A DNA stretch of 64,000 nucleotides from Promethearchaeota archaeon (GCA_014728035.1 WJMJ01000071.1:96001-160000), one strand, 5' to 3'; positions 35,871-43,211 are shown, numbered from the stretch's first letter. Made by a program: numbers and translations. Notes: a model not told the origin generated them from the letters alone.

Positions 35871-36036
35871 GGTATTAATTCTAATGTCCACCGAAACAAC
35901 TATTCGGATTATTATATTGTTAGATTGATGTATTGTTCAAAAATTACTAATTAGAAGTAGTGCAATGATTATGTTTTTAAGTTGAACTCAGAGAGTTGCG
36001 TTGACTTCAATCAAATACCTAGGAGACATAATACGA

Positions 36037-36897
36037 ATGTCACGAAAGAAATGGGGAAGATCCACAGCAAAGACTGAAAGAGTCATTCGAGATGCTGTTC
36101 CCAAAGAAACAGTATTGAAAGAGATTGATGATTATCTTGTAGGAGCATCTTCTGTTACACCATATGATTTAGCGAAGAAATTCAATGTTCGAATCAGTGT
36201 AGCACGCAAAATCTTGCGTGAAAAAGAAGAAGAAGGAATTATCGTTCCATATATTCGAGAGAGTGGTTTCGTTATCTATACTACCCCTTCTGAAATGGAA
36301 AAGCGCGAGAAGGGAAAGCCAATAATGATAGCTGATGTTCTGGAAGAAGTTGCATCTTCCGTACCGGCCGAGTCAATTGCGACTGAAGAAATGGATGCCG
36401 CGCTCGCTGCAGCTGCAGCACCGACAAGCGTTAAACCAAGTAAGCTAAAACGAAAACGTCGAGAAGCTGGAGAGAGGAAGGAACGAAAGGACTCCAGACC
36501 TGAAGTAGTAGTAGAACCTTTGGAAGAAGAGGAGGAAGCGGAACCGAAAAAGCCTCCCAAAAAGGAGAAGCCAAAGAAAGCTCCTAAGAAAGAAGAACCA
36601 AAGAAAGAGCAACCAAAGAAAAAACCCGAAAAGAAAAAACCAGAAAAGGAAGAGAAACCCGAAAAAGAAGAGAAGCCAAAACCTAAGCCAAAGAAAAAGA
36701 AGAAAAAGAAACCAAAATTATCCGATATCTCTGGTATTGGCCCAGCAATGAAAGAAAAATTAATTGAGGCTGGAATTAAAACTGTTCTAAATCTTTCAAG
36801 AGAAGATCCGAGTAAATTGTCGGAGAAAGTGGATGGGGTTGGCTTGAAGACTGCTGAAAAATACATTGCAGCAGCCATTAAAGCACTAGAGGAATAA
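36037..36897 (+). CDS. rps25e: Ribosomal protein eS25 fused to a K/E/P-rich linker and a C-terminal HhH domain
   Basis: RKKWGR...VTPYDLAKKFNVRISVARKILRE.EEEGII......GFVIYT is eS25-like. C-terminal LSDISGIGPAMKEKLIEAGIKT...VDGVGLKTAEK is HhH. AGGAG SD. Confidence 0.8.
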   Translation: MSRKKWGRSTAKTERVIRDAVPKETVLKEIDDYLVGASSVTPYDLAKKFNVRISVARKILREKEEEGIIVPYIRESGFVIYTTPSEMEKREKGKPIMIADVLEEVASSVPAESIATEEMDAALAAAAAPTSVKPSKLKRKRREAGERKERKDSRPEVVVEPLEEEEEAEPKKPPKKEKPKKAPKKEEPKKEQPKKKPEKKKPEKEEKPEKEEKPKPKPKKKKKKKPKLSDISGIGPAMKEKLIEAGIKTVLNLSREDPSKLSEKVDGVGLKTAEKYIAAAIKALEE

Positions 36898-37016: not shown

Positions 37017-37661
37017 TTATAATGTACTGAGGCGTTTTTCTAGTTCTGCTAATTCCGAATCAAGTTCAGATTCTTTTGCTTTGTATTCTTCTTCAGGAAT
37101 ATATCCTCTCATGTAATCAAAGCGTAAATCTGTAAGTTGAGCCTTCAGTTTGTCTCTTTGTTGCTCAAGGAATTGTTTTTGAGCATCTCCTTCTGGTTCA
37201 GGTTCTTTCGGAATTGGCTCAGGTTCTTTTGGAGTTGACTCAGGCTCTTTCTCTGGAACTTTTTCGGGCTCTTCTGGCTCAGGTTCTTTTGGAGTTGGCT
37301 CAGGCTCTTTCTCTGGAACTTTTTCGGGCTCTTTTGGAACTGGCTCGGATTCTACTTTCGGAGTGATTTCCGGCTTTTTCTTGGGTTCAGAAACCGAAGT
37401 GGTGTCTCCAGTATCAGGTGCAACTTGCACTGATTCCATCTGTTCCATGTTTTTTCTAAGCTCCTCAATTTGATCCGCGATTTCTGCAAATGATTTATTG
37501 ATAGTCTGAGTTATTTCAGACTTCATTCTTGCAAAGTTCTCGGCTAATGTGTCAGCTAATCGTTTTGTTTCTGCCACTTTTTCTGCAAAAGCTTTTATCG
37601 CCTGGAGTTTACCATTGAGTTCCTCCATCTGTCGCTGTATCTCTGAAAAATCAAAAGACAT
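37017..37661 (-). CDS. Coiled-coil protein with PEPK repeat linker and C-terminal SHOCT/CdvA-like helical hairpin
   Basis: N-terminal heptads, KEPEPTPKEPEPEEPEKVPE repeats, LRFDYMRGYIPEEEYKAKESEL. Confidence 0.8.
   Translation of the reverse strand: MSFDFSEIQRQMEELNGKLQAIKAFAEKVAETKRLADTLAENFARMKSEITQTINKSFAEIADQIEELRKNMEQMESVQVAPDTGDTTSVSEPKKKPEITPKVESEPVPKEPEKVPEKEPEPTPKEPEPEEPEKVPEKEPESTPKEPEPIPKEPEPEGDAQKQFLEQQRDKLKAQLTDLRFDYMRGYIPEEEYKAKESELDSELAELEKRLSTL
37215..37333. repeat. 60-bp near-perfect tandem duplication inside a CDS
   Basis: tggctcaggttcttttggagttg(a/g)ctcaggctctttctctggaactttttcgggctctt at 37215 and 37275. Confidence 0.9.
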
Positions 37662-37950: not shown

Positions 37951-38793
37951 TCATTTTTCAGAAGTTTTTCCTTCGAGGATTGCTTTTCGAATTAGCTGAA
38001 CAAGGCGTTCTCGATACGAAATATCAATTGCAACAAGCTCGTAGGTTGGCACTCCTAATATTTGACCAACTCTCTCTGGAGTCAAGGCAGTAGGAAGGTC
38101 TTGTTTGTTTGCAATTCCAATCACTTGTGCATTTGGTACTTCTTCTTTTACAAGTGAAACCAACTTCTTGCTCCGTAATACATTCTCCAATGTGCTATCT
38201 GTGACTAATATCACGACTTGCGCATTGGCAATCATTTTAGACCAGAGAATACTAAATCTTGCTTGACCTGCAAGATCCCAAAGTACTATGTTTGCAGATT
38301 GTACTTCCTCTGGTAGTTTTTTAATTGAAACACCAATTGTAGGATCATGAACCAGTGGAAGGGTTTCCCCTCGAAGCAAGTGCAATGTTGTTGTTTTTCC
38401 AACTCCTGCAAATCCCAAGATTGCAACTTTAACCATGGTAACAGCAATTTGGTCAACAGTTTCACCAAAATCATCGAGTGGCTGTCCAGCCATAGCCAGA
38501 TTTGCGAAATCCTTCATGAATATGTCTATTAATTGATCTGTTTTTTCTTCGATCTGTGCGGGTTCATCAGCTTTATCTGCCAGGGATATAAATGTAAAAC
38601 TTCCTCGTTTAGCATAGAACACTCTTGATACTGATAAGTTCATGTACTCGGTCTTCTCAAGATCTACTGATTTCAGAAACTGGGTTAGATTGACTAGGAA
38701 TTCAATTAGATTAGCTCTGGAATCACTCTTTGCGTATTCTTTTGAAAAGAGAATGTTATTTTGTTCTCCGAGTATATAGATACCTCGAATCAT
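37951..38793 (-). CDS. Longin-domain / small GTPase (Ras superfamily, Arf/Rab-like) fusion
   Basis: N-terminal IRGIYIL...ILFSKEY...FTFISLAD (longin). G1 GFAGVGKT, G2 DPTIG, G3 WDLAGQ, G4 NKQD. Confidence 0.9.
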   Translation of the reverse strand: MIRGIYILGEQNNILFSKEYAKSDSRANLIEFLVNLTQFLKSVDLEKTEYMNLSVSRVFYAKRGSFTFISLADKADEPAQIEEKTDQLIDIFMKDFANLAMAGQPLDDFGETVDQIAVTMVKVAILGFAGVGKTTTLHLLRGETLPLVHDPTIGVSIKKLPEEVQSANIVLWDLAGQARFSILWSKMIANAQVVILVTDSTLENVLRSKKLVSLVKEEVPNAQVIGIANKQDLPTALTPERVGQILGVPTYELVAIDISYRERLVQLIRKAILEGKTSEK

Positions 38794-39896
38794 GATTTTG
38801 TTCTCCAGCTATTGATAAGGTGTTCAAGGTATGACACTACAACTTTAGCATCAAGATTTTCTTCATTCCATTTATTCGCTATTATGGGAGCGACATATTC
38901 TGGCATGAAGCAATCAAAGATAGGATTCGTCAATAGTGCCCATATTGTTTCATCATCAAAAGATGTAACTATACTATTTGACTGTAATGCCCACAAAGCT
39001 TTGGTTACAATTGATTTTGGAAATGCAGTTTCAATCACAATTTCCTCGATGGAAAGTGGACCTTTTCGTAGTACAGAAATGATATTATAATGAATTGTAT
39101 TAGCAACATTTTCTGCTATCTTCTCTCGGTCTTCAATTATGGGTTGAGATTCTTCCCCGCTGACTATTGTCGGATTGTATCCTCTTCCCGATTCATCAGG
39201 ACTGAAGAAACTATCTACACGAGAAACATACTCCTTGTGAATTTCAGGATAAGTCATTTCAGTCAACTTCATACTTTGTGTAGGTGGAGCCCGATATCCG
39301 AATAAATCTTTAACCAGAAACACATATTGTTTTGTTCTTGTGATCATTTCAATTTCGAGTATACCAGCACTAGTTAGGGGTGTGATGGCCTCCACGATAT
39401 CAATACCGTCATCACCCACTTCGTTTTTTAGCCACATTGACAATTCAACAGCGCCTGTCACTATTCGTTTTTGCATTCTTTCCAATATAAGAGGGGCTGA
39501 TGGAGTAAGAAAGACTCTAGCATATTTCTGCTCTTGACTTTCTTGTGACAAGCTGCTCCCGGATTTCATTATATCTTCGAGATTTATATCCTCAACTGAT
39601 GTTTCAGCTAACTCCAAAAGTAGTCTTGCAGTTCCCTCTAGATGGGTACTTTCATAGCTGATATCATCATCTGTTTCCATTTCGAAACAAATTACCCATT
39701 CTGGCATCTTCTTCTTAGAATATGATAATATTTTCCTCCCATCTAGATTGATAACATGAAGTCCAAATTTATCCGCATGGGGGACGTAAATGTTATTGAG
39801 GTCTGCCTCTGTTACTTTCAATGATGTGGGATATCTCTTCTTTAGGATAAACCCGTGATTTTCATCCAACTGAATTAGAAAGACTGCACTCGGCAT
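38790..39896 (-). CDS. Longin/uDENN-like N-terminal domain plus winged-helix protein
   Basis: AVFLIQLDENHGFILKKRYP resembles the uDENN/NPRL first hairpin. Two wHTH-like segments (AVELSMWL..AITPLTSAGIL; PLSIEEIVIETAFPKSIVTKALWALQSNSIV). ATGA overlap with the GTPase gene. Confidence 0.6.
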   Translation of the reverse strand: MPSAVFLIQLDENHGFILKKRYPTSLKVTEADLNNIYVPHADKFGLHVINLDGRKILSYSKKKMPEWVICFEMETDDDISYESTHLEGTARLLLELAETSVEDINLEDIMKSGSSLSQESQEQKYARVFLTPSAPLILERMQKRIVTGAVELSMWLKNEVGDDGIDIVEAITPLTSAGILEIEMITRTKQYVFLVKDLFGYRAPPTQSMKLTEMTYPEIHKEYVSRVDSFFSPDESGRGYNPTIVSGEESQPIIEDREKIAENVANTIHYNIISVLRKGPLSIEEIVIETAFPKSIVTKALWALQSNSIVTSFDDETIWALLTNPIFDCFMPEYVAPIIANKWNEENLDAKVVVSYLEHLINSWRTKS

Positions 39897-40026
39897 TGAA
39901 AAGCCCCTGTGGTTCGATTAACATCGTTGCATAAATGTTTGACTCTTATCTACCTATTGACATACCAAAGAAAAAGATAATGTTTCTTATACGAAAAGTC
40001 ATCAAATTAATGCACTCCTAGAAAAT

Positions 40027-42372
40027 ATGAAAAGCGTTCCTCTATATCTCATGATAGGCATTCATATGGAATCTAAAACAATCGACTCAATTGTTCCCGC
40101 ATCTGCTGCAAAAGGCTTACAGCTGGCAGGTGGTTCTATGATGGAACAAGCAATCCCAGAAGACTATGTGATGGCATCGATTCTCTTGAATGCTCTAGAA
40201 GAAAGAAATGGCATGGATCTGGAATTCTTTCTCAAAGCGTATCTGCCTATCCACGTCATTAAGTCACCTACTACTAACTGGTTTGCGTTAATTGAACGAC
40301 TTGGACTTGCGTCATCAACAATTCCTACATATTCTGATATCGATTTCAAGTCATTCAAAACAGCTCTGAATAGTGCGCTAACAATCGAATCTCTTGGAAC
40401 TGTCACTAGTGATTTAGACTCCGAATTAAACAAGATAATAGAAAGCAACTCTTTGGAAGTTCCTGGTTTAATGTCAGGAGCAATAGCTGATGCGGTTTCA
40501 ATTCAACTTGATTGGCCCTATCATACCAATCTCGAAAGCTATGCATTTTCATTCCCCTCTATGATCGAAGACAGCGAACTTGCAGAACACTCTGAGAAAA
40601 TTAAAAGAACCCTCTCATTGTTAGACTCTGCAAGTACCCATATACGAGATATATTGCAAACACTTGAAGAACGTTCTCATATCTTACTAACTCGGATGGA
40701 ACAAGGGCATCTACCAAAAATTGAGCGTCTGGACCAGCGAATTCGTGTTCTTGAAGTAGAAATCGAAAATATTGAGCATAAGATTAGTTCTGGTATCGGT
40801 CTAAAGGAGGAATTAAAACAGATCTCTACTGCACGAAAAAAGGCTTTGAAACGAGATATATCTCGTCGGAAGGCACTGATTGCAGAGATGACAGAGAAAT
40901 CCAGTAAGATTTCGTCAGACATTGATAGTCTTACAAATAAAGCACAGACTGTTCTCACTTCTATCAATTCTGCACGTGAAAGCCTTGATTCTTTGTTGGT
41001 TGGTGTACGTAGTGCTAACATTCCTAAAGAAGGAGTTTGTCTTCTTTTTCCGTTCTTCGTTGTAGGATATTCAAAAAAGGGTCAATTGCGATTGAATTAC
41101 TATCCCCCTTCAAGACTAAAGGACAATGATGAGAGAGTTGGAATTCGGCGTGACTTTGTGTATCCATTCTTTTTCGCTTCAGAATCTTATTCTGAATTAA
41201 TATCTTTGTTAGAGAAGCGTATTTCTAGTGATATTTCATTGAGAAAATCTATCCGTTCTCATGCCAAAGATAATAATCTTCTCGCTTTGGCACATACGAG
41301 GAAAATGATTATTGAGGGAACAAAATCTCTTCTTGCGGATGGGCTTGTTAAAGAATCGAAGATTGAAGATATTGTGAATCTTCTGGATGTTTTCCCTGAG
41401 AAATCACCGGTAGAACGCTTTCTTACTGATGGGGCGTTTGTGGCTGATTCTGAAGAGTTATGCTCAGTAAAATTCCATATCTGTGATGAATCTGGTAGGG
41501 CCATTGAAAATGCTACCTTAGAATTAGGAGTACTCTCAATGGAATCTGACGAACGTGGAGGAATAAGAATTTCATTGCCCATGAGCCATTATGATGGCAT
41601 TGTTAGTGCTGCAGGATTTCATGAGAAAACTCTGGAATTCAGTATAAAGTCAACAAACGATATCGTCATTCCAGTAGTATTAGCTGAACTCAGTCGAGAA
41701 GACCGTCTTGATCGGTCACTCGATAGCCTTGTTGCAAAAGCAGAGCGAATTGAAGGAATTAGGCGAAAATTACTGGAGATTTTTGAAAAACAAGGTGAGA
41801 TGCTTTTATCAGTGCCTGCTTATCGAAGTGCTTTGGTTGAGTTATTGTCAGAACTTGGTTATGACCCAGAATCTTGGATTTCTGAAGCATTGAGTAAGAA
41901 GGGTATGGTCCAGAGACTCCTGAAACGAAATGATCGGATTGATGGGATGCAACGTGATATTTTACGACTTGCAAGCGAGTCCAGAAACTTTGGGGGGATT
42001 ATGCTTTTTTCCGAATTGCTGATTAGCCTTGATGAATTAGGTTGGAACACAAACCCTGATGAAGTGGAGGACATTCTTTCTTCCATGATTAAGGAGGGGC
42101 TTGTTGATGGATTAACCACACTCAAGGACGGCATAAGAGTTGTCCAATTTATCCCAGTTGCGCTTACTCACGACCCTCGTGATTTGCTTGGACTAGCTGC
42201 AAAGAAGGATGGTAAACTAACCATTGAGGATGTTGTTGTCAATCTTGAGTGGACCGAGGAACGAGCTCGTAACGCATTCGATTTGCTTGTTTCAAAAGGT
42301 GTAGCAAAGCTACAAAAGAGCTATGCAAGGTCAACAATCTATTGGTTTCCAGGCCTTCGGGGAAAGAAATAA
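40027..42372 (+). CDS. Multidomain protein: coiled coil, Ig/transthyretin-like domain, C-terminal ESCRT-II EAP30 (Vps22/Vps36) domain
   Basis: PAYRSALVELLSELGYDP, GGIMLFSEL, VQFIPVALTHD, GKLTIEDVVVNLEWTEERARNAFDLLVSKG, YWFPGL parallel Vps22/SNF8 motifs. The start may be ATG 40051 or 40066. Confidence 0.85.
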   Translation: MKSVPLYLMIGIHMESKTIDSIVPASAAKGLQLAGGSMMEQAIPEDYVMASILLNALEERNGMDLEFFLKAYLPIHVIKSPTTNWFALIERLGLASSTIPTYSDIDFKSFKTALNSALTIESLGTVTSDLDSELNKIIESNSLEVPGLMSGAIADAVSIQLDWPYHTNLESYAFSFPSMIEDSELAEHSEKIKRTLSLLDSASTHIRDILQTLEERSHILLTRMEQGHLPKIERLDQRIRVLEVEIENIEHKISSGIGLKEELKQISTARKKALKRDISRRKALIAEMTEKSSKISSDIDSLTNKAQTVLTSINSARESLDSLLVGVRSANIPKEGVCLLFPFFVVGYSKKGQLRLNYYPPSRLKDNDERVGIRRDFVYPFFFASESYSELISLLEKRISSDISLRKSIRSHAKDNNLLALAHTRKMIIEGTKSLLADGLVKESKIEDIVNLLDVFPEKSPVERFLTDGAFVADSEELCSVKFHICDESGRAIENATLELGVLSMESDERGGIRISLPMSHYDGIVSAAGFHEKTLEFSIKSTNDIVIPVVLAELSREDRLDRSLDSLVAKAERIEGIRRKLLEIFEKQGEMLLSVPAYRSALVELLSELGYDPESWISEALSKKGMVQRLLKRNDRIDGMQRDILRLASESRNFGGIMLFSELLISLDELGWNTNPDEVEDILSSMIKEGLVDGLTTLKDGIRVVQFIPVALTHDPRDLLGLAAKKDGKLTIEDVVVNLEWTEERARNAFDLLVSKGVAKLQKSYARSTIYWFPGLRGKK

Positions 42373-42431: not shown

Positions 42432-43211
42432 ATGAACAAGCTCTCTCACATGTTATTTGCATTCTCGTTATTTTTCGCAATTTATTCACTAATCTATGCA
42501 TTCAGTGTTTGGCAATCTGACCTTGGAACACTGATGGATATGCTTTCCTATTTCTTAGTTGGTGGTATTGCAGCCACTTTTCTGGTACCAGTTCTCTATT
42601 ACAAAGCCCCTCACAAAGGTATGCGTTCTCGAACAACCAGTAATCGGGGAGCTGTTGGCGCAATGACCTTCATTGCATTTTGTTTCGGCTCTTTAGGTGG
42701 TACAATTGTTTATCAATGGATTTCAGGTGTTCCAATTGTAGGTAACATTTCCATCTTTATGGGTGCTTTGATGACTGTGGTTGGAGCTCTCATGCCAGAT
42801 TGGGACATTCCCTTGATGGGTATATCTCGTCACAGAAATGTGATATTTCACTCCTTTTTACTGCCTTTCGTGGTAGTGATGGGTACTTTATTCAACACTG
42901 CTGCTAAAATTGCATCCTCTGCGACATTTAGTGTAGGTGTTCACATTGAGTACTATATCACTGCTCTTTTCCTAATTGGATATGCCTCTCATCTGTATCT
43001 TGATATATTTCCAAGTGATGCAAGTCCACTGGAAATCATCTGGCGAGCTGCTAATCCAACGGATCAAGCACCAACAGGACTAAAACGCCTTGGACCAATC
43101 TATATCTCAAAGAAAAGAGCTAGAGGTTGGCTAGTATCTAATGCCACAATATTAGTAATAATAGCTTTAGCTCTACTTGGTTTGTATTTCTATAATTTGC
43201 CGACCTCGTAA
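42432..43211 (+). CDS. Membrane-bound metal-dependent hydrolase (YdjM-like)
   Basis: N-terminal H, GALMPDWD, HRNVIFHS, GYASHLYLD; multiple TM segments. Confidence 0.75.
   Translation: MNKLSHMLFAFSLFFAIYSLIYAFSVWQSDLGTLMDMLSYFLVGGIAATFLVPVLYYKAPHKGMRSRTTSNRGAVGAMTFIAFCFGSLGGTIVYQWISGVPIVGNISIFMGALMTVVGALMPDWDIPLMGISRHRNVIFHSFLLPFVVVMGTLFNTAAKIASSATFSVGVHIEYYITALFLIGYASHLYLDIFPSDASPLEIIWRAANPTDQAPTGLKRLGPIYISKKRARGWLVSNATILVIIALALLGLYFYNLPTS

Follow-up and report, generated by a model that had tools for sequence, protein, structure and literature searches.

The divergent gene cluster described here probably combines a small-GTPase switch, served by a longin regulator of its own, with an accessory ESCRT-II-like adaptor to which the switch is functionally linked (we put the probability of this reading at roughly 0.6). 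The cluster lies in a window of 64,000 nucleotides (the whole stretch of DNA analysed, from Promethearchaeota archaeon, GCA_014728035.1 WJMJ01000071.1:96001-160000), which belongs to a Thorarchaeota genome; through it, the pairing of a GTPase switch with ESCRT-like machinery could be put to the test in the archaea most closely related to eukaryotes. The names LWH (longin + winged helices), BIG (the large gene) and X (the N-terminal module of BIG) are coined here. The features of the locus are as follows:

37017-37661, minus strand: coiled-coil protein gene (214 aa), lying downstream of the GTPase and probably accessory
37951-38793, minus strand: longin-fused Arf/Rag-like GTPase gene (280 aa)
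37954-38457, minus strand: G domain of the GTPase, residues 113-280 (Pfam Arf)
38458-38793, minus strand: longin domain of the GTPase, residues 1-112 (by homology to an Odin-like protein passing Fuz_longin_1)
38790-38793, minus strand: ATGA stop/start overlap of LWH and GTPase, read directly from the sequence
38790-39896, minus strand: LWH gene (368 aa), candidate NPRL2-like regulator
38901-39149, minus strand: acidic C-terminal winged helix-turn-helix (wHTH) of LWH, residues 250-332 (AlphaFold model)
39201-39539, minus strand: winged-helix-like middle domain of LWH, residues 120-232 (AlphaFold model)
39546-39896, minus strand: longin domain of LWH, residues 1-117 (AlphaFold model)
39897-40026, no strand: divergent intergenic region between LWH and BIG (130 bp)
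40027-42372, plus strand: BIG gene (781 aa), an ESCRT-II (Vps22) paralogue
40081-41412, plus strand: module X of BIG, residues 19-462 (X family from an exhaustive search)
40570-40989, plus strand: coiled-coil hairpin inside module X, residues 182-321 (model)
41455-41694, plus strand: transthyretin-like Ig domain of BIG, residues 477-556 (model, Z 13.6)
41695-42369, plus strand: helix and tandem winged-helix (WH) EAP30 region of BIG, residues 557-781 (SNF8 profile match, Vps22 fold)
42432-43211, plus strand: YdjM-like polytopic membrane protein gene (259 aa), starting 60 bp downstream of BIG

The open reading frames, the head-to-head layout and the ATGA overlap described in an earlier sequence-only reading of this DNA are all confirmed in the sequence, and the domain assignments it gave to the three proteins (longin/WH, longin-GTPase and EAP30) hold. 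On the minus strand the LWH/GTPase junction reads ...AAA TCA TGA / ATG ATT..., with the ATGA at 38793-38790 and a GGAG 11 nt upstream, and the orthologues of the two genes within the family either overlap or are separated by a gap of a few bases (start assignments being our own). Judged by these sequence features, LWH and the GTPase are translationally coupled. The head-to-head gap between LWH and BIG is 130 bp, or 169 bp if BIG begins at Met14 (40066), the start position in most BIG orthologues. Two back-to-back TATA-like elements, recognised by eye within the intergenic region, are putative promoters.

The GTPase scores 68.9 bits against Pfam Arf (cut-off 22.3), and the top PDB match of its family profile is Arf1 (E 8e-23). 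The G1-G5 motifs are intact (GVGKTT, T152, WDLAGQ and NKQD); orthologues across the family share 69-94% identity, and GFAGVGKTT, WDLAGQ and NKQD are invariant in an alignment of 29 sequences, as is Q177. The N-terminus is assigned indirectly: its ~112 residues align over their full length with an Odin-like homologue, and as that protein scores above the Pfam Fuz_longin_1 cut-off (27.8 against 26.1 bits), a longin domain is indicated by homology. Since this domain takes the place of the amphipathic (myristoylated) N-terminal helix of Arf, which is absent from the protein, the GTPase is Arf/Rag-like rather than a canonical Arf. Its architecture class is that of the Asgard Rag/Arf-like GTPases fused to a longin or roadblock domain (Liu et al. 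2020/2021; Tran et al. 2024). In strain MK-D1, GTPase genes are generally not found in operons with longin or roadblock genes (Tran et al. 2024), whereas the gene studied here is in translational coupling with that of a longin regulator, a pairing seen again in several families (of 14 Asgard families sampled, 5 have LWH and GTPase side by side).

In the AlphaFold model of LWH (pLDDT 87.9), a longin domain (residues 1-117) with the beta-beta-alpha-beta-beta-beta-alpha fold is followed by a middle domain resembling a winged helix and then by a wHTH at the C-terminus. Its best Foldseek matches are GATOR1 NPRL3/NPRL2, and the top nine are all chains of NPRL2/NPRL3 or of yeast Npr2/Npr3, aligned over 315-493 columns; compared as a fold, the longin scores Z 11.3 with a longin domain from Lokiarchaeota and Z 11.2 with NPRL2. 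The sequence-only reading had proposed an 'NPRL/DENN-like regulator'. The NPRL part agrees with these structural matches, but the DENN-like identity is rejected, as LWH has no cDENN/dDENN, the domains that follow the longin are winged helices, and matches to DENND1 are limited to the longin (residues 1-114). LWH matches an 'NPRL2-like' longin family that has been named before and is present in most Thorarchaeota MAGs (Liu et al. 2020/2021).

As in NPRL2-NPRL3 of GATOR1 and the related C9orf72-SMCR8 and FLCN-FNIP complexes, LWH has an N-terminal longin followed by winged-helix-type domains, and it is likewise paired with an Arf/Rag-like GTPase, for which it is a candidate GAP. It differs in that its profile retrieves no NPRL, FLCN, SMCR8 or C9orf72 chain from the PDB at E values up to 10, and in that no arginine finger is identified; the locus differs in having neither a DEPDC5 nor a DENN partner, and in a client GTPase that carries its own longin. 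The arginine finger of NPRL2, which we take to be R78, served as the reference position, and no conserved Arg was found in the strand 4-strand 5 loop of LWH, a loop tentatively equated with the finger position. The invariant residues of LWH are D11 and G15 in the longin and D197 and R202-APP in the middle domain. The longin motif, an invariant D-x3-G (WDxxxG in paralogues), lies at the strand 1-strand 2 loop, where strand 2 starts, and C9orf72 has W33-D34 and G38-P39 at the same position and spacing (PMC12290439). In LWH, however, the residue after G15 is F, L, A or T and not the proline of the GP motif.

The C-terminus of BIG is a true Vps22/EAP30 homologue. The single sequence scores 19.8 bits against Pfam EAP30, under the cut-off of 26.8; the 21-sequence family profile matches human SNF8/Vps22 (E 3e-18 over residues 561-772, ~22% identity) and yeast Vps22 (E 4e-9). 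In the model (pLDDT 81.7) a helix (557-594) precedes WH1 and WH2; the C-terminus matches 3cuq_A in Foldseek (2.4e-7), and comparison with the Vps22 fold gives Z 11.2 over residues 634-779 and Z 10.6 over 556-781. A canonical cluster with Snf7, Vps4, Vps25 and a 250-aa EAP30 protein is found on another contig of the genome, C44, and the EAP30 part of BIG is 33% identical to the canonical EAP30 protein of its own genome. BIG is an extra ESCRT-II paralogue, additional to that cluster. The module had been proposed to be distinct from the canonical ESCRT operon, and it is, that operon being on C44; in keeping with the earlier remark that no ESCRT-I/III or Vps4 gene is recognisable here, no homologue of Vps25, Vps4, Snf7, Vps28 or UEV occurs in the 64-kb window. 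Residues 557-781 resemble eukaryotic ESCRT-II (Vps22/SNF8, Vps36 and Vps25) in their helix and tandem winged helices, and the gene sits outside any ESCRT, Vps4 or ubiquitin cluster. BIG also resembles Vps36 in having a large N-terminal region ahead of the tandem-WH core, but this region consists of module X, with its coiled-coil hairpin, and the transthyretin-like Ig domain rather than a GLUE/PH domain.

Module X (~450 residues) has no match in Pfam or the PDB. An exhaustive search finds it also as stand-alone archaeal proteins of ~540 aa, three of six of which are adjoined by type-IV-pilus genes. In addition, X is fused to a longin domain in four representative Asgard protein clusters (~696 aa), and the longin of these fusions is of the GTPase type (HMM E 1e-14 to 1e-18). 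The longin-X fusions give an independent link between the GTPase-type longin and the N-terminal module of BIG. Asgard multidomain proteins that join ESCRT-I Vps28-C, an adaptin appendage and a longin have been described, which their authors take to suggest that small GTPases are linked to ESCRT (Makarova et al. 2024, PMC10936438). There the connection is to ESCRT-I Vps28-C and by fusion, whereas here it is to an ESCRT-II Vps22 paralogue, through gene neighbourhood and the longin-X fusions.

The sequence-only reading had depended on the adjacency being conserved in relatives, and the divergent arrangement is indeed kept in 45 of 46 Thorarchaeota species. This family-level synteny is weak evidence, however, because a ~20-kb block of unrelated housekeeping genes (AlaX-like, NTP-transferase, eS25, GluRS and hydantoinases) is equally syntenic, in the same order across the family, and the adjacency of the LWH-GTPase pair and BIG within the family may be inherited rather than selected. 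The locus could on that account consist of two unrelated units, an explanation that we consider rather unlikely: LWH and the GTPase (together with the coiled-coil protein) would form a self-contained switch, BIG would be an alternative ESCRT-II subunit for the canonical cluster, the adjacency would be inherited synteny, and other co-occurrences would be due to chance in GTPase-rich genomes. No BIG was detected in 11 of the 85 genomes of the family, and the pair is intact in the four of these that were examined (three of them 97-98% complete), so the pair works without BIG. The pair also occurs without BIG in other Asgard families, none outside Thorarchaeia and Asgardarchaeia having BIG near it, and outside Thorarchaeia BIG has conserved partners of its own (a ~200-aa gene, a GCS2-like ~1140-aa gene and a VWA gene). 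Asgard genomes hold tens of small-GTPase genes, so some proximity between a GTPase and BIG is expected by chance; in Asgardarchaeum only a plain 221-aa Arf-like GTPase lies near BIG. Against two unrelated units stands an Asgardarchaeia MAG in which one divergent cluster contains BIG together with LWH (HMM E 6e-72) and a longin-GTPase (E 4e-77), although this GTPase is of a paralogous subfamily, outside the orthologue group of the window's protein. Here the gene order is changed, two further genes lie in between, and BIG is only ~23% identical, and yet all three families, not the GTPase alone, recur together in two distant lineages. The Asgardarchaeia cluster is stronger evidence for a link than the Thorarchaeota synteny. 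A link is also favoured by a second Thorarchaeota family (G025), in which two longin-GTPases lie less than 10 kb from BIG. The independent longin-X fusions argue in the same direction, as do the divergent spacers, which are always short (57-145 bp) across species.

It is also conceivable, but highly improbable, that LWH is a GTPase-responsive transcription factor, whose wHTH would bind the divergent intergenic region and control both BIG and its own operon while the longin senses the state of the GTPase. The C-terminal domain of LWH does find its closest resemblance in ArsR/SmtB repressors (Z 9.4), with a profile match to PagR at E 2e-4; relatives are publicly annotated as MarR-type or biotin-operon repressors, and prokaryotic regulators are classically encoded divergently from their targets. 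However, the wHTH is acidic in 28 of 28 members (median pI 4.9, net charge -4), with no conserved basic residues in the 'recognition' helix, and the most conserved motifs of LWH sit in the longin and middle domains. Moreover, a Zn-finger gene (~120 aa) parts LWH from BIG in most Thorarchaeota (26 species other than the present one, with spacers to BIG of 57-115 bp), and the winged helices of NPRL2/3 and ESCRT-II are protein-binding modules.

If the locus is a GTPase switch tied to BIG, LWH and the GTPase would pair through their longin domains, as in the NPRL2-NPRL3, C9orf72-SMCR8 or MglB platforms. This pairing would determine which nucleotide the fused G domain carries, with LWH as candidate GAP or GEF; candidate active surfaces of LWH are the loop with the invariant D11/G15 and the hairpin with D197/R202-APP. 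In MglA-MglB, and in SRbeta with the SRX domain of SRalpha, a small GTPase of Ras or Arf type is similarly bound and controlled by a roadblock or longin platform, and SRX is among the structural matches of the LWH longin (Z 8.3); those systems, however, use homodimeric roadblock or single-longin effectors without winged helices or an ESCRT-related neighbour. The GTP-bound GTPase, or the longin platform, would then engage module X of BIG, whose Vps22-like winged helices would recruit the Vps25 and ESCRT-III encoded on C44, placing ESCRT activity under a GTPase switch. BIG would fill the place of a Vps36-type subunit, its N-terminal region, ahead of the tandem-WH core, serving for targeting.

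A more specific proposal, which we offer tentatively, is that Thorarchaeia and Asgardarchaeia possess a GTPase-controlled variant of ESCRT-II, in which an NPRL2-like partner tunes a longin-Arf/Rag-like GTPase and the GTPase recruits a Vps22 paralogue via X, a module whose stand-alone archaeal homologues often have type-IV-pilus genes as neighbours, so that membrane scission is directed to GTPase-marked sites. If true, prokaryotes would have had a forerunner of the endolysosomal sorting that GTPases govern, and some of its parts would be pilus-associated.

Both flanking genes had been suggested as possible members of the module, and the suggestion survives for one of them. The membrane protein narrowly passes Pfam YdjM (29.9 bits, cut-off 29) and its gene follows BIG in nearly all family genomes; it stays where BIG is missing and is absent beside BIG outside the family, and its membership is doubtful. 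The coiled-coil protein has a central Pro/Glu/Lys-rich linker and only sub-threshold coiled-coil matches in Pfam. Its gene travels with the GTPase, adjoining the orthologue in most family loci that reach that far and also in G025.

The locus lies in the window (C37:96001-160000) of a 4.3 Mb Thorarchaeota MAG, G000. All five genes that the sequence-only reading had described here are borne out by open reading frames (ORFs):

37017-37661, minus strand: ORF, coiled-coil protein
37951-38793, minus strand: ORF, longin-fused Arf/Rag-like small GTPase (280 aa; 'the GTPase')
38790-39896, minus strand: ORF, NPRL2-like longin and winged-helix protein (368 aa; 'LWH')
40027-42372, plus strand: ORF, protein ending in an EAP30 domain (781 aa; 'BIG')
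42432-43211, plus strand: ORF, YdjM-like membrane protein

The ATGA at 38793-38790 on the minus strand is made up of the overlapping LWH stop codon and GTPase start codon, with a GGAG 11 nt upstream, and LWH and BIG stand head-to-head with a gap of 130 bp. The true start of BIG is probably 40066 (Met14) rather than 40027: in most orthologues the first residue aligns with Met14, and the model leaves residues 1-18 disordered (pLDDT below 50). Nearby, at 36001-36897 on the plus strand, is a gene for ribosomal protein eS25 (Pfam S25, residues 14-94) fused through a long linker to a C-terminal helix-hairpin-helix (HhH) domain; this fusion gene keeps the same position across the family of the window.

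Sequence searches of LWH return a weak C-terminal winged helix-turn-helix (wHTH) and nothing else. Its AlphaFold model (28 sequences; pLDDT 87.9, pTM 0.86) has three domains:

residues 1-117: longin domain
residues ~120-232: winged-helix-like middle domain
residues 250-332: ArsR-like wHTH, followed by two helices

The best nine Foldseek matches of LWH are NPRL3/NPRL2 chains of GATOR1 or SEACIT, at E 3e-4 and weaker; a different orientation of the domains keeps the TM-scores low. Structural alignment gives Z 11.3 with a Lokiarchaeota longin domain, 11.2 with NPRL2 and about 9.5 with Lst4, DENND1 and Ykt6. The DENN-like label first attached to LWH does not hold, as the model has no DENN core; the protein agrees instead with the 'NPRL2-like' longin family of Thorarchaeota described by Liu et al. 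Two residues conserved in the loop between strands 1 and 2, D11 and G15, form a WDxxxG motif in the paralogues and two orthologues, and correspond in position and spacing to W33-D34 and G38-P39 of C9orf72 (PMC12290439). D197 and R202-A-P-P, on a middle-domain hairpin, are also conserved. Public records name the relatives of LWH hypothetical proteins or transcriptional regulators. Every member has an acidic wHTH (median pI 4.9), which counts against DNA binding, and a role as a transcription factor is disfavoured.

The GTPase matches Pfam Arf at 68.9 bits, with matches to Roc and Ras too, and its profile (29 sequences) matches Arf1 structures at E 8e-23. The enzyme looks active from its motifs, since GFAGVGKTT, T152, WDLAGQ (Q177) and NKQD are invariant. 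It is by far the best conserved of the three proteins, with family orthologues 69-94% identical. Its N-terminus is not the Arf amphipathic helix but a domain of about 112 aa that aligns over its full length to Odin-like homologues passing Pfam Fuz_longin_1 (27.8 bits versus 26.1); an Atlas feature search with this domain gave a weak lead (0.76). The protein belongs to the class of longin-fused Rag/Arf-like GTPases already known from Asgard archaea.

The model of BIG (pLDDT 81.7) can be divided as follows:

residues 20-175: alpha/beta region 1
residues 182-321: antiparallel coiled-coil hairpin of 140 residues, between the two alpha/beta regions
residues 324-460: alpha/beta region 2, then a linker
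residues 477-556: transthyretin-like Ig domain (Z 13.6 to a carboxypeptidase D domain)
residues 557-781: long helix and two winged helices

Residues 557-781 are a true Vps22 homologue, matching human SNF8 by profile (E 3e-18), by Foldseek (2.4e-7) and by structural alignment (Z 11.2). The canonical ESCRT cluster of the genome (Snf7, Vps4, Vps25, a 250-aa EAP30 protein and a Zn-ribbon/PH protein) is on another contig, C44, and the 64-kb window holds no ESCRT-I, ESCRT-III or Vps4 genes. BIG is thus an additional ESCRT-II paralogue, and the initial view of the locus as distinct from the canonical operon stands. A second EAP30-like gene elsewhere (240 aa; L058, G036:C1:88,670-90,580) is followed by a gene for a 134-aa protein with weak similarity to the GTPase-type longin profile and, after that, by one for a small ArsR-like wHTH protein.

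Profile-profile comparison among the domains of the GTPase, LWH and BIG finds no similarity, and by this means the N-terminal domain of BIG is not detectable as a longin. An 'AVPEDY' motif had been considered a mark of an NPRL2-type longin in BIG; this idea was dropped because Atlas structure matches to region 15-180 are archaeal hypothetical proteins only and an exhaustive search places the region in the family of the N-terminal module of about 450 aa (module X). PDB searches with the complete BIG model sampled no part of module X.

The exhaustive profile search with BIG residues 19-462 finds 293 representative proteins in three architectures, and G000 itself has a single X module. About 22 representatives are of the BIG type (X, Ig and EAP30), and those looked up carry the public names Thorarchaeota, 'Asgardarchaeia' and Asgardarchaeum. 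About 135 are stand-alone X proteins (median length 542 aa), which adjoin type-IV-filament genes (T2SSE, T2SSF, KaiC-like ATPases, prepilin peptidase) in three of the six contigs examined and unrelated genes in the other three. At L062, L065 and L074, X proteins of ~540-570 aa are divergent beside T2SSE/T2SSF or adjoin KaiC-like ATPases, HTH_45 proteins and prepilin peptidase, a context that points to an origin of X within type-IV-filament loci, as one of their components. In the third architecture a longin precedes X. It comprises four clusters (~696 aa) whose source MAGs are Asgard genomes with the label Promethearchaeota; their N-terminal ~125 residues score E 1e-14 to 1e-18 against the GTPase-type longin profile and lie just above the Pfam Clat_adaptor_s cut-off. 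This fusion is a Rosetta-stone-type link between X and the longin type of the GTPase; the genes around the fusion genes offer no further clue.

The adjacency on which the sequence-only reading depended is conserved among relatives: the arrangement of the LWH-GTPase pair divergent from BIG is kept in 19-20 of the 24 sampled family genomes and, in a survey of 55 Thorarchaeota species, at 45 of the 46 loci whose upstream sequence is long enough. Conservation at the family level is nevertheless weak evidence for a functional link, since the housekeeping genes on its flanks (M20 peptidase, AlaX-like, NTP-transferase, eS25-HhH, GluRS, hydantoinases) are just as syntenic over about 20 kb. Of 85 family genomes, 11 yielded no BIG; in four of these the loss is clean, and YdjM, LWH and the GTPase stay, as does the coiled-coil gene where the contig reaches it. 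Most other Thorarchaeota have a gene for a Cys-rich B-box-like Zn-finger protein of ~120 aa (~111-146) between LWH and BIG, on the strand of LWH (upstream of LWH in 26-30 of 45 species; loci L076-L129). Its distance is 24-98 bp to LWH and 57-115 bp to BIG, so that the divergent spacer is consistently short. The protein has the motif C..CG.YKG[IV]G and a sub-threshold match to the Pfam ANCHR-like B-box; its gene was not found in G000 and is missing at window positions 39897-40026. A 515-aa protein of the canonical ESCRT cluster has the same weak B-box match. In G025, a genome from another family within the order, the GTPase orthologue and the coiled-coil gene lie 3 kb from BIG, and two more GTPases, one longin-fused and one plain Arf-like, are within 10 kb; a 256-aa B-box protein is divergent from BIG, and LWH is elsewhere in the genome.

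Outside Thorarchaeota, an Asgardarchaeia MAG (GCA_054384735) has, divergent from BIG and in this order, genes for a 780-aa protein, a 1258-aa protein, a longin-GTPase (299 aa) and LWH (366 aa; full-length profile match at E 6e-72, WDxxxG present), while BIG is followed by genes for 220-aa and GCS2-like 1139-aa proteins. This BIG is ~23% identical to that of G025, and the GTPase is of a paralogous longin-GTPase subfamily, whose G000 member is on C44 near a second LWH. These two paralogues, an LWH of 395 aa and a longin-GTPase in a ~498-aa ORF, are about 3 kb apart (L046; C44:91465-96265), 80 kb from the canonical ESCRT cluster. In Asgardarchaeum the sole GTPase near BIG is a 221-aa Arf-like protein, and four further families have LWH-GTPase pairs without BIG. 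A longin-GTPase beside the canonical ESCRT operon was rejected as a general pattern, being confined to an Odin-like genus among the families checked. There (L037, L038), a UEV-Vps28-EAP30-Vps25-Vps4-Snf7-Snf7 operon and an SSB-like gene are followed by a 298-aa longin-Arf-like GTPase, which is a reciprocal best hit of the window GTPase in a near tie.

LWH and the GTPase form a robust unit. Its functional link to BIG is favoured, with a probability of roughly 0.6, by the co-occurrence of the three families in two distant lineages with different gene orders, by the compact divergent layout in nearly all BIG-bearing Thorarchaeota and by the longin-X fusions, which are independent of gene neighbourhood. 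Three points weigh against the link: BIG is dispensable, the Asgardarchaeia GTPase is paralogous and GTPase genes are dense in Asgard genomes, which contain dozens of small GTPases and longin/roadblock proteins. Tran et al. (2024) stressed that gene layout seldom reveals which regulators or effectors go with these proteins. Under a functional link, LWH and the GTPase would pair through their longins and LWH would regulate the GTPase; X may act as a docking module and Vps25 may be recruited.

NPRL2-like longin proteins, longin-GTPases and Vps22 paralogues are known kinds already, and an ESCRT-longin connection has been proposed for other Asgard proteins (Makarova et al., PMC10936438). The literature searched yielded no mention of the X-Ig-Vps22 architecture, of the X family and its longin fusion, of the coupled LWH-GTPase operon or of its recurrent co-location with the X-Ig-Vps22 gene, and all homologues looked up are annotated as hypothetical, transcriptional regulator or, in one case, PEGA domain protein. 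The locus offers a concrete matched set, a coupled regulator-GTPase pair and a candidate effector of the ESCRT-II family, whose association is seen in two distant lineages and is supported by a domain fusion. Apart from the 781-aa BIG, which is divisible into domains, the proteins are small enough for in vitro tests. If the link is true, the coupling of a GTPase switch to ESCRT machinery would be older than eukaryotes, and the uncharacterised archaeal X family (about 290 representative sequences) would gain a role.

Outside the family of the window (L134, L067, L044, L032), two genes come after BIG: one of ~200 aa, and one for a ~1140-aa protein that combines a GCS2-like carboxylate-amine ligase domain at its N-terminus with Ig-like repeats. 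In lineages outside Thorarchaeia these are followed in turn by genes for a CDC48_N/VWA protein and an amidohydrolase. The G000 homologue of this ligase-like gene, with one in-frame TGA, is at C37:71211-74624, about 25 kb before the window start and 61 kb from BIG.
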